64,000 bases of DNA, taken from NCBI RefSeq assembly GCF_057098645.1, contig NZ_CM169472.1; one strand, 5' to 3'. The notes under the pieces are model-generated. The model had not been told where the DNA came from. It saw only the letters and a program-made list of their open reading frames with translations, and made no database searches. This document shows positions 59,320 to 60,019 of this stretch, piece after piece. The translations under genes were made by a program, and so were the position numbers. Position 1 is the first letter of the stretch. Each line of letters starts with the position of its first letter.

Positions 59320-59343
59320 ACCCGCCGCTGAGCGGGTTTTTTT
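59320..59343 (+). terminator. Rho-independent terminator downstream of Q (tR'-like)
   Basis: acccgccgctgagcgggt hairpin followed by TTTTTTT. Confidence 0.6.
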
Positions 59344-59492
59344 GTGCCTGATGTCTCATGAAACTATGAAATGGATTGGTGCGTTAAACATTTTTTCTTA
59401 TTATCTTTTAGATTTTGGAGAGATGGGTAACGTCTGTATTCCAGAAACTCGATGAATATTTAATAAATTAGTTTCAATGATGCTTCTAGGTT

Positions 59493-59918
59493 ATGAGTGT
59501 AATGAAAAAGGTATTAATAGCAGCGATAGGTTTTTGTTTAGTTGGTTGTGCAGGTATGAAATTACCTGAGTATTCGCAAGTTAAAGCAAGTCCGTATTAT
59601 ACAGATTGCCGTGCGTTTGCCATGGATGTTTATAAAAATGATGGATACAGCAAAATTGCGAAAACCACTATCCTTAGCATGGATGATGTGAAGGCTAGAT
59701 ATATTGTTACAGGGTGTGTAGTTGCTATGGGGAAAAACACTGTAGAGGAAATTAAAGCTGATCTCTCTGCTAAAGGGAGTTCTTTTGGGCTTATCAGTGG
59801 TGCTTGTTCTAGTGCTGCATGTCGGGTTGATGTAGAGCAGCAAATGAACGCTTATATACTTGGTAGTTATTATGCTACAAATAAAAAATTCCCGGATAAA
59901 ATGAAAGCAGAGTTTTAA
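59493..59918 (+). CDS. Moron lipoprotein (signal peptide + lipobox LVGC)
   Basis: 141-aa ORF MSVMKKVLIAAIGFCLVGCAGMK…; AT-rich; sits in the Q-to-lysis slot. Confidence 0.65.
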   Translation: MSVMKKVLIAAIGFCLVGCAGMKLPEYSQVKASPYYTDCRAFAMDVYKNDGYSKIAKTTILSMDDVKARYIVTGCVVAMGKNTVEEIKADLSAKGSSFGLISGACSSAACRVDVEQQMNAYILGSYYATNKKFPDKMKAEF

Positions 59919-59995
59919 GCAAACCTTGTTTTCGATTATATGCCGAAGATAAATGTTAGTAACGGCATAATAAGTAAATATATAGCTGTGATAGC

Positions 59996-60019
59996 AACCC
60001 GCCACTGAGCGGGTTTTTT
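59996..60019 (+). terminator. Second terminator, near-identical to the one after Q
   Basis: acccgccactgagcgggt hairpin followed by TTTTTTG; one mismatch from the hairpin at 59320. Confidence 0.55.

Follow-up and report, generated by a model that had tools for sequence, protein, structure and literature searches.

In a 64,000-nucleotide stretch of contig NZ_CM169472.1 (assembly GCF_057098645.1), here referred to as the window, a lambda-like (lambdoid) Escherichia coli prophage carries a gene for a predicted lipoprotein of 141 amino acids in a cassette that directly follows the terminator tR' of the late-gene switch. Comparison with related phages shows that this cassette is a presence/absence polymorphism of 677 bp that is delimited on either side by a copy of the tR' hairpin, and it is probably a moron, i.e., a self-contained accessory unit that would consist of a weak promoter, the lipoprotein gene, and an intrinsic terminator. 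Morons in the sense of Juhala and Hendrix are extra DNA relative to related genomes, deviate in base composition, carry a promoter and a terminator of their own, and are expressed from the repressed prophage (PMC3594210). The cassette is extra DNA relative to its close relatives (phages SfV and vB_EcoM-720R4, and 257 empty against 214 filled sites in E. coli genomes), its GC content of 0.357 deviates from that of its surroundings (0.467–0.481), and the second hairpin copy would be its own terminator.

A presence/absence polymorphism bounded by two tR' hairpins

The two near-identical terminators that the initial annotation had seen on both sides of the lipoprotein gene were recovered as a 24-nt direct repeat, AACCCGCC[G/A]CTGAGCGGGTTTTTT, at 59319–59342 (copy 1, AACCCGCCGCTGAGCGGGTTTTTT) and 59996–60019 (copy 2, AACCCGCCACTGAGCGGGTTTTTT), with 96% identity and a spacing of 677 nt. 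The 20-nt core pattern, searched with up to two mismatches, occurs at these two sites only in the window, and the number expected by chance is 0.00 (100 dinucleotide shuffles). Both copies are predicted intrinsic terminators in which a GC-rich hairpin is directly followed by a U-tract, with folding energies of −13.9 kcal/mol for copy 1 (U7) and −13.3 kcal/mol for copy 2 (U6). The tails had been given earlier as gggt plus T7 and gggt plus T6, which is one T too many in each case, as the T-runs comprise 7 and 6 residues in total. A terminator consensus scan of the window listed copy 2 and not copy 1; in the GenBank record of phage Ayreon, both hairpins carry a terminator annotation, and copy 2 was found 3' of the lipoprotein gene in all E. 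coli-type loci that reach that far. The stem ACCCGC/GCGGGT is constant across all variants of the hairpin and the loop varies (CGCTGA, CACTGA, CCCTGA, CGATGC, ATTGC), which is the pattern that selection for the hairpin would give.

Copy 1 lies behind the gene of the late antiterminator Q, a protein that is 34% identical to both lambda Q and P22 Q, matches PF03589 twice (9e-30 and 4e-19), and contains a DnaJ-type zinc finger; it thus falls into the Q-lambda Pfam family PF03589 and not into the phage-21 family PF06530 (family definitions and names according to PMC9388147). From the Q stop codon to the hairpin there are 106 nt, and these can be aligned with lambda pR' (TTGACT-17-TAAATT-6-AACGATGGG) at both hexamers, with a −35 element TTGCGT at 59244–49, a 17-nt spacer, a −10 element TAAGAT at 59267–72, and, after 6 nt, the sigma-dependent pause element AACGATGGG at 59279–87, which is identical in lambda and in the window. 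As this alignment places pR' and the pause element at 59244–59287, copy 1 can be regarded as the tR' of a Q-lambda-family late switch, for which the Q family, the pR' alignment, the pause element, and the terminator are all found in the expected arrangement. The predicted transcription start is A 59279, and the uninduced pR' product would be a leader RNA of about 60–65 nt that extends from 59279 to approximately 59343. Transcription from pR' is constitutive in lysogens and ends at a terminator, and short RNAs are thereby produced, lambda 6S and StxS being examples (PMC7547250).

The region from Q to the adjacent methyltransferase gene is 98.4% identical in the phages mEp460 and Ayreon, and it was found with the cassette in all 15 records of Stx2c-converting phages and in phiSTEC1575-Stx2k. 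SfV and vB_EcoM-720R4 share Q, the leader, a 75-residue-protein gene, and the methyltransferase gene with the window at 97–100%, and they have one terminator and no lipoprotein gene. Of the insertion at tR' that was initially proposed, an indel polymorphism is supported, in which the empty sites carry a single terminator. The empty junction of 720R4 is made up of exactly one hairpin, in its A variant, joined to the left and right flanks. That of SfV still contains about 12 nt, GTGCCT(T)GATGT, of a sequence otherwise confined to the left end of the cassette; the SfV site thus has the appearance of a filled site that underwent an imprecise deletion. Among 5426 complete E. coli genomes, the filled site was present in 214 (approximately 4%) and a contiguous empty junction in 257. 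The GC content of 0.357 compares with 0.467 in Q and 0.481 in the methyltransferase gene. A recent sweep of the cassette, which would have left it better conserved than the flanking segments, could have been expected from the overall identity of only 93.7% between the window and the Stx2c phages, but this was ruled out, as the drop is entirely due to the methyltransferase gene (83.6%), all other segments being 97–100% identical. A small open reading frame (ORF) that is annotated in Ayreon between tR' and the lipoprotein gene (corresponding to approximately 59342–59455 in the window) is not conserved in Salmonella according to manual reading, and we did not take it as a gene.

The order of events can also be read in the opposite direction. 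The filled state may be ancestral, with empty sites resulting from precise deletions between the terminators or from imprecise ones, and with hairpins that resemble each other by common tR'-type descent or gene conversion. This history is possible, albeit in our view doubtful: it agrees with the cassette-specific remnant at the SfV junction, which supports a deletion in at least one lineage, with the two copies being identical over 24 nt in Ayreon and the Stx2c phages and only one base apart in the window, and with the fact that a related cassette in Salmonella is also positioned between two related hairpins with similar tails, whereas by its low GC content the cassette stands out as foreign to its operon, and a junction of the 720R4 type equally fits a site that has never been occupied. 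As this alternative concerns history only, the functional reading is unaffected. The initial annotation had suggested that the cassette was inserted together with, or by duplication of, tR'; the indel at tR' stands, but a duplication is indistinguishable from a related terminator brought along by the cassette or from deletions that generate the empty sites. A small element that moved by transposition or site-specific insertion, with the repeats as its target-site duplication, is in our view a very improbable explanation of the cassette. Direct repeats of 24–31 nt at both ends would be compatible with such an element, but the 677 bp encode no transposase or integrase, the lipoprotein gene being the only supported ORF, and terminal inverted repeats are lacking, with an internal AT-rich 15-mer as the sole inverted pair. 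Moreover, target duplications are usually far shorter than this repeat, which is itself terminator-like and serves as a breakpoint in mosaics without the cassette.

The lipoprotein and its expression

The AT-rich lipoprotein gene was present as initially described, with signal peptide and lipobox LVGC. The protein begins with MKK, continues with a hydrophobic stretch, and has the predicted signal peptide MKKVLIAAIGFCLVG directly before the lipobox cysteine (codon 59547–59549); the lipobox agrees with the pattern [LVI][ASTVI][GAS]C, and Gly18-Cys19 is invariant in 8 of 8 aligned homologues. Four further cysteines, C39, C75, C105, and C110, are also invariant in this alignment, and the residue at position +2 of the predicted mature protein is Ala and not Asp. 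Homologues occur in E. coli, Salmonella, Buttiauxella, and Klebsiella with 55–76% protein identity. The ratio of nonsynonymous to synonymous substitution rates (dN/dS) is 0.08–0.17 at saturated dS, and of the 47 viral contigs of IMG/VR that could be evaluated, 45 have an intact gene and two (L049 and L058) a frameshifted one. The gene is thus conserved and, as judged from these comparisons, under purifying selection, and the initial annotation, which had made its reading depend on such conservation among relatives, was right in this respect. The missing match to any curated family, and a 147-codon frame without support that is open on the opposite strand as well, could have pointed to a chance ORF in an AT-rich spacer that leaves a duplicated terminator as the only feature. 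This idea is refuted by the dN/dS values, by the sequence identity across E. coli, Salmonella, and Buttiauxella, by the invariant lipobox and four cysteines, and by the intact frames, and we give it practically no credence.

The lipoprotein belongs to PHROG 4748, a family of unknown function. Searches of Pfam (even at E ≤ 10), NCBIfam, PADLOC, and PDB sequences with the single protein or a profile gave no match, and when 1.84 billion representatives were searched exhaustively with a profile, 8 proteins were returned, all of them members of the lipoprotein's own family; the most distant family member (P0015) as query added no further homologues. AlphaFold2 predicts an all-helical domain with moderate confidence, at a predicted local distance difference test score (pLDDT) of 67 and a predicted template modeling score (pTM) of 0.69, and no known fold was matched by this model. 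There was also no sequence or predicted-fold similarity to Bor/Iss, Cor, Llp, TraT, or known defense systems; the initial annotation had proposed a lysogenic-conversion or exclusion factor, a role for which these comparisons gave no match. Public records label the protein as "hypothetical protein" or "Lipoprotein". A literature search yielded no paper that names it by accession or PHROG number, and none of the papers that mention mEp460 seemed, by title and abstract, to treat it.

In two loci, a second lipoprotein gene for 99 amino acids (PHROG 7666) follows directly 3' of the PHROG 4748 gene, namely in the viral contig L057 (4437–4736) and in the Buttiauxella 111-kb plasmid L007 (5446–5745). 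The two copies are 77% identical in otherwise unrelated contexts, and neither the window nor any of the other loci compared up to that point has the partner. This pairing suggests that PHROG 4748 and PHROG 7666 may form a two-lipoprotein unit in some phages.

With respect to expression, a promoter scan of the 150 nt upstream of the gene found nothing at the default threshold. With at least 8 of 12 matching positions, two candidates were found in this region, TTGGTG-17-TATTAT and TAAACA-18-TAGATT (from 59385). The former lies 55 nt from the start of the hairpin, and at exactly this offset the Salmonella cassette has its only candidate, TTGGTA-18-TATCAT (9/12); the latter has no counterpart there. 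This positional agreement is suggestive of a promoter that belongs to the cassette. Homologues also exist outside of late operons: one is found in the early-left region near kilR and recE (L008), one between divergently oriented terminase and lysis genes (L057), and one on the plasmid L007. The gene-specific terminator has been retained in both diverged lineages, E. coli and Salmonella, and in the EC27 prophage, which is 98.8% identical to that of the window over the shared region but defective, the lipoprotein gene is intact. Based on the non-late contexts, the retained terminator, and the intact gene in EC27, autonomous expression is favored.

A functional alternative is an ordinary Q-dependent late gene without its own promoter, with a role in the lytic cycle, such as lysis tuning or receptor masking against the loss of progeny on debris, and with hairpins that are successive barriers overridden by Q. 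We regard this as rather unlikely. The gene does have the strand and position of the late genes, 3' of pR', its promoter match of 8/12 is weak, and in Salmonella it lies 5' of the holin genes with only its own terminator and a methyltransferase remnant in between. However, about half of the near-identical Q modules are without the cassette, and the gene is thus dispensable; the homologues in non-late contexts, the intact gene in the defective EC27 prophage, and the gene-specific terminator and the candidate promoter at the same offset, both found in the two lineages, also speak against this alternative.

With the cassette regarded as a moron, the following mechanism can be proposed. In the lysogen, the constitutive pR' would yield only the leader RNA of about 60 nt that ends at copy 1, the lipoprotein mRNA would originate from the cassette's own weak promoter, and copy 2 would end this mRNA before the methyltransferase gene and the lethal holin, endolysin, and spanin genes are reached. 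A constitutively expressed insert at this position would need such an insulator, and the alternative cargo of phage vB_EcoM-689R6 described below appears to have one, too. Upon induction, Q-modified RNA polymerase would read through copies 1 and 2 and a third terminator (61555–61576), and the lipoprotein would then also be made as a late product. Gain and loss of the cassette would occur by homologous recombination between the terminator repeats of 24–31 nt, with an imprecise deletion now and then. After processing by Lgt and LspA, the mature protein of about 122 residues, with Ala at +2, would be sorted to the outer membrane, where it may act at the envelope as a periplasm-facing, disulfide-stabilized helical protein. 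Bor, Cor, Llp, and T4 Sp are class analogues for a role in the envelope or in exclusion, and by analogy our best guess for the lipoprotein is superinfection exclusion or lysogen fitness.

Several points weigh against the moron interpretation. The promoter match is weak, with only 8/12 positions and a score below the scan threshold; terminator function, lipidation, and outer-membrane sorting are predictions; and the envelope function is proposed without a match in homology or fold, on a structural model of moderate confidence. The order of events can be read in either direction as well: the SfV remnant implies that some empty sites are deletions, and what looks like a duplicate of tR' may be a related terminator of the cassette itself.

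The tR' hairpin in other mosaics and in comparison with known systems

Genome comparisons show that the tR' hairpin is a breakpoint of homology in other mosaics, too, also where the Q proteins of the phages are unrelated. In phage cdtI and strain KMi025, which have reverse-strand genes and a small Q of a different kind, homology to the window sets in precisely with the first base of copy 2 (59996). In strain 10153, Q, pR', and tR' are shared with the window and the sequences part just past copy 1, and right-hand breakpoints in IMG/VR contigs are at 60019, 60060, 60130, and 60317. In Salmonella prophages, a 74%-identical cassette (76% at the protein level) is located behind an unrelated Q of 192 amino acids, and the homology covers 59321–59926, starting with the hairpin core's first base. 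The end terminator of the Salmonella cassette is related but distinct (ACCCGC-ATTGC-GCGGGTTTTT, then GTATCCGAAAC), and between the lipoprotein gene and the holin genes downstream there is only this terminator and a truncated methyltransferase remnant.

The same slot can be filled with other cargo. In vB_EcoM-689R6 (L011, 3408–4467), a gene for a protein of 179 amino acids (PHROG 11949) and a small ORF directly follow tR', with a promoter match of 10/12 and an own strong terminator with a 13-bp stem, and most of the methyltransferase gene is replaced. In Stx2c phages (L009, 6001–10701), the order is Q, tR', lipoprotein gene, copy 2, 75-residue-protein gene, methyltransferase gene, and stx2cAB, and in an Stx2k phage (L005), the cassette lies 5' of tRNA genes and stx2k. 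The interval between Q and the lysis genes is thus indeed the one that bears stx, as the initial annotation had pointed out, and in both phage types this very cassette is positioned 5' of the toxin genes. The stx2c-linked Q protein is 98% identical to that of the window and presumably corresponds to the allele that is named "Q21" in O157 typing papers such as PMC4809568.

Like the lambdoid morons HK97 gene 15, lambda bor and lom, and stx (PMC3594210), the cassette adds a gene of deviant GC content with its own predicted terminator between genes of an essential operon; its product is a small predicted envelope protein, and it shares the slot between Q and the holin gene S with stx. It differs from them in that the protein is unrelated to Bor, Cor, Lom, and gp15 by sequence or predicted fold, that its promoter is only weakly predicted, and that its terminator is a near-copy of the operon's tR'. 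The switch in front of it resembles the arrangement of Q, pR', pause element, and tR' that generates 6S RNA in lambda, with a PF03589-type Q, an alignable pR', an identical AACGATGGG, and an intrinsic terminator next to it, but Q has 250 amino acids and only 34% identity, the leader is about 60 nt long compared with 194 nt in lambda, and two further terminators (ending at 60019 and 61576) are located inside the late operon. As with StxS and lambda 6S (PMC7547250), a constitutive pR' followed immediately by tR' predicts an abundant short RNA, though the leader of the window has no Rfam match: a search with the leader and the cassette gave no family and only sub-threshold attenuator-like matches that are due to the hairpins.

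The closest described precedent for recombination at such repeats is the PeSL cassette of T4-type phages, in which a strong early promoter is combined with a stem-loop and of which each genome contains many (Arbiol et al., 2010; PMC2839356). Here as there, repeated terminator stem-loops flank accessory genes, and recombination between the repeats can explain insertion, deletion, and replacement between close relatives (PMC2839356), the difference being that in the window only the terminator is repeated, and this in two copies. A more far-reaching view can be derived from this analogy. The tR' hairpin may be a portable recombination linker through which the genes it bounds can be exchanged between lambdoid phages whose Q proteins are unrelated, and perhaps be excised as circles, and would then be the lambdoid counterpart of the T4-type PeSL; PHROG 4748 may found a new family, that of helical, disulfide-bonded lipoproteins of the outer membrane that protect the lysogen or exclude superinfecting phages, in some phages together with PHROG 7666. 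We regard this extended view as unlikely.

It is well established that the interval between Q and S is a hotspot for morons and toxin genes, that Q overrides multiple terminators, and that mosaic junctions occur at short conserved sequences, and the current understanding of morons and Q-dependent regulation is not overturned by our data. Modestly new are the widespread orphan lipoprotein family, the tR' hairpin that bounds the cassette and serves as a junction across unrelated Q, and the pairing with PHROG 7666. The cassette provides a natural example of how an accessory gene can enter a lethal late operon with its insulation unbroken, and of a short terminator that serves as a mosaic junction. 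In the Stx2c and Stx2k phages, it places itself and an extra terminator between pR' and the toxin genes, and the target of the lipoprotein, if found, could add a further exclusion or fitness factor at the level of the envelope.

In the fold predicted for the pR'-tR' leader (plus strand, 59279 to approximately 59343), a hairpin at the 5' end is followed by a single-stranded, AU-rich part (GAUAAGAUUUAAG) and by the terminator with its U7 tail. This is the layout of an Hfq-binding small RNA and also that of lambda 6S and StxS (PMC7547250). Stx2c phages have the same leader, with 97% identity.

Neighboring late genes and the rest of the prophage

The features of the late region are compiled in Table 1. 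The placement of the cassette between Q and the lysis genes, as initially stated, is correct insofar as it lies in this interval right after Q, pR', and tR', but the gene for 75 amino acids, the methyltransferase gene, and the third terminator separate it from the holin gene. A 92-codon ORF that starts with GTG at 61553 is probably an over-extension of the holin of 71 amino acids.

Table 1. Coordinates of the cassette and of the surrounding late-region features in the window.
Feature	Position	Strand	Basis or remark
Late-gene antiterminator Q, 250 aa, Q-lambda family	58460..59212	+	Pfam PF03589, PHROG 127
Predicted late promoter pR' and pause element	59244..59287	+	Alignment with lambda pR'
Terminator copy 1, predicted tR'	59319..59343	+	Hairpin and U7, leader fold; annotated as terminator in phages Ayreon and SfV
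Cassette, 677 bp, absent from vB_EcoM-720R4	59343..60019	+	Indel relative to empty site
Candidate cassette promoter TTGGTG-17-TATTAT (8/12)	59376..59404	+	Positional counterpart in Salmonella
Lipoprotein gene, 141 aa	59493..59918	+	PHROG 4748 at 2e-90; alternative start ATG 59502
Terminator copy 2, predicted terminator of the cassette and proposed insulator before the late genes	59996..60019	+	Hairpin and U6
Late-operon gene, 75 aa, PHROG 331	60118..60345	+	Present in filled and empty phages
DNA N6-adenine methyltransferase, orphan type II	60496..61548	+	Shared with SfV and vB_EcoM-720R4
Third intrinsic terminator, GGCCACGTCAGGTGGCC and U5	61555..61576	+	Between methyltransferase stop codon and holin; annotated in Ayreon and SfV
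Lysis cassette	61616..62792	+	Holin (ATG) 61616–61831, endolysin 61831–62328, Rz to 62792, embedded Rz1 62545–62751

Outside of the late region, an anti-phage dCTP deaminase gene (46244–47851, minus strand; NCBIfam NF041025 at 3e-139, PADLOC dCTPase at 2e-164) adjoins the integrase gene (44853–46091). The EC27 prophage, in which a 921-bp query was 100% identical at an overall identity of 98.8%, differs from the window in this integrase-adjacent cargo and has the sirtuin Dsr1 in the slot of the dCTP deaminase, and the slot thus looks like a hotspot for defense genes with swapped cargo. The defects of the EC27 prophage (L062, 24187–27875 and 32957–33654) comprise a truncated large terminase subunit, fragmented tail genes, and an IS1 element, with no head genes annotated; the lipoprotein cassette, the methyltransferase gene, and the lysis genes are intact.

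Two Rfam matches on the plus strand exceeded the gathering score, isrK (54059–54135, 63.7 bits) and C4 antisense RNA (54160–54247, 82.8 bits), and these matches indicate that the prophage has a predicted c4/ant immunity or antirepressor module of the P1/Gifsy type. The host DNA upstream of the prophage contains three tandem tRNA-Leu(CAG) genes (41190–41512, minus strand) and the REP-derived naRNA4 (41652–41734, plus strand).

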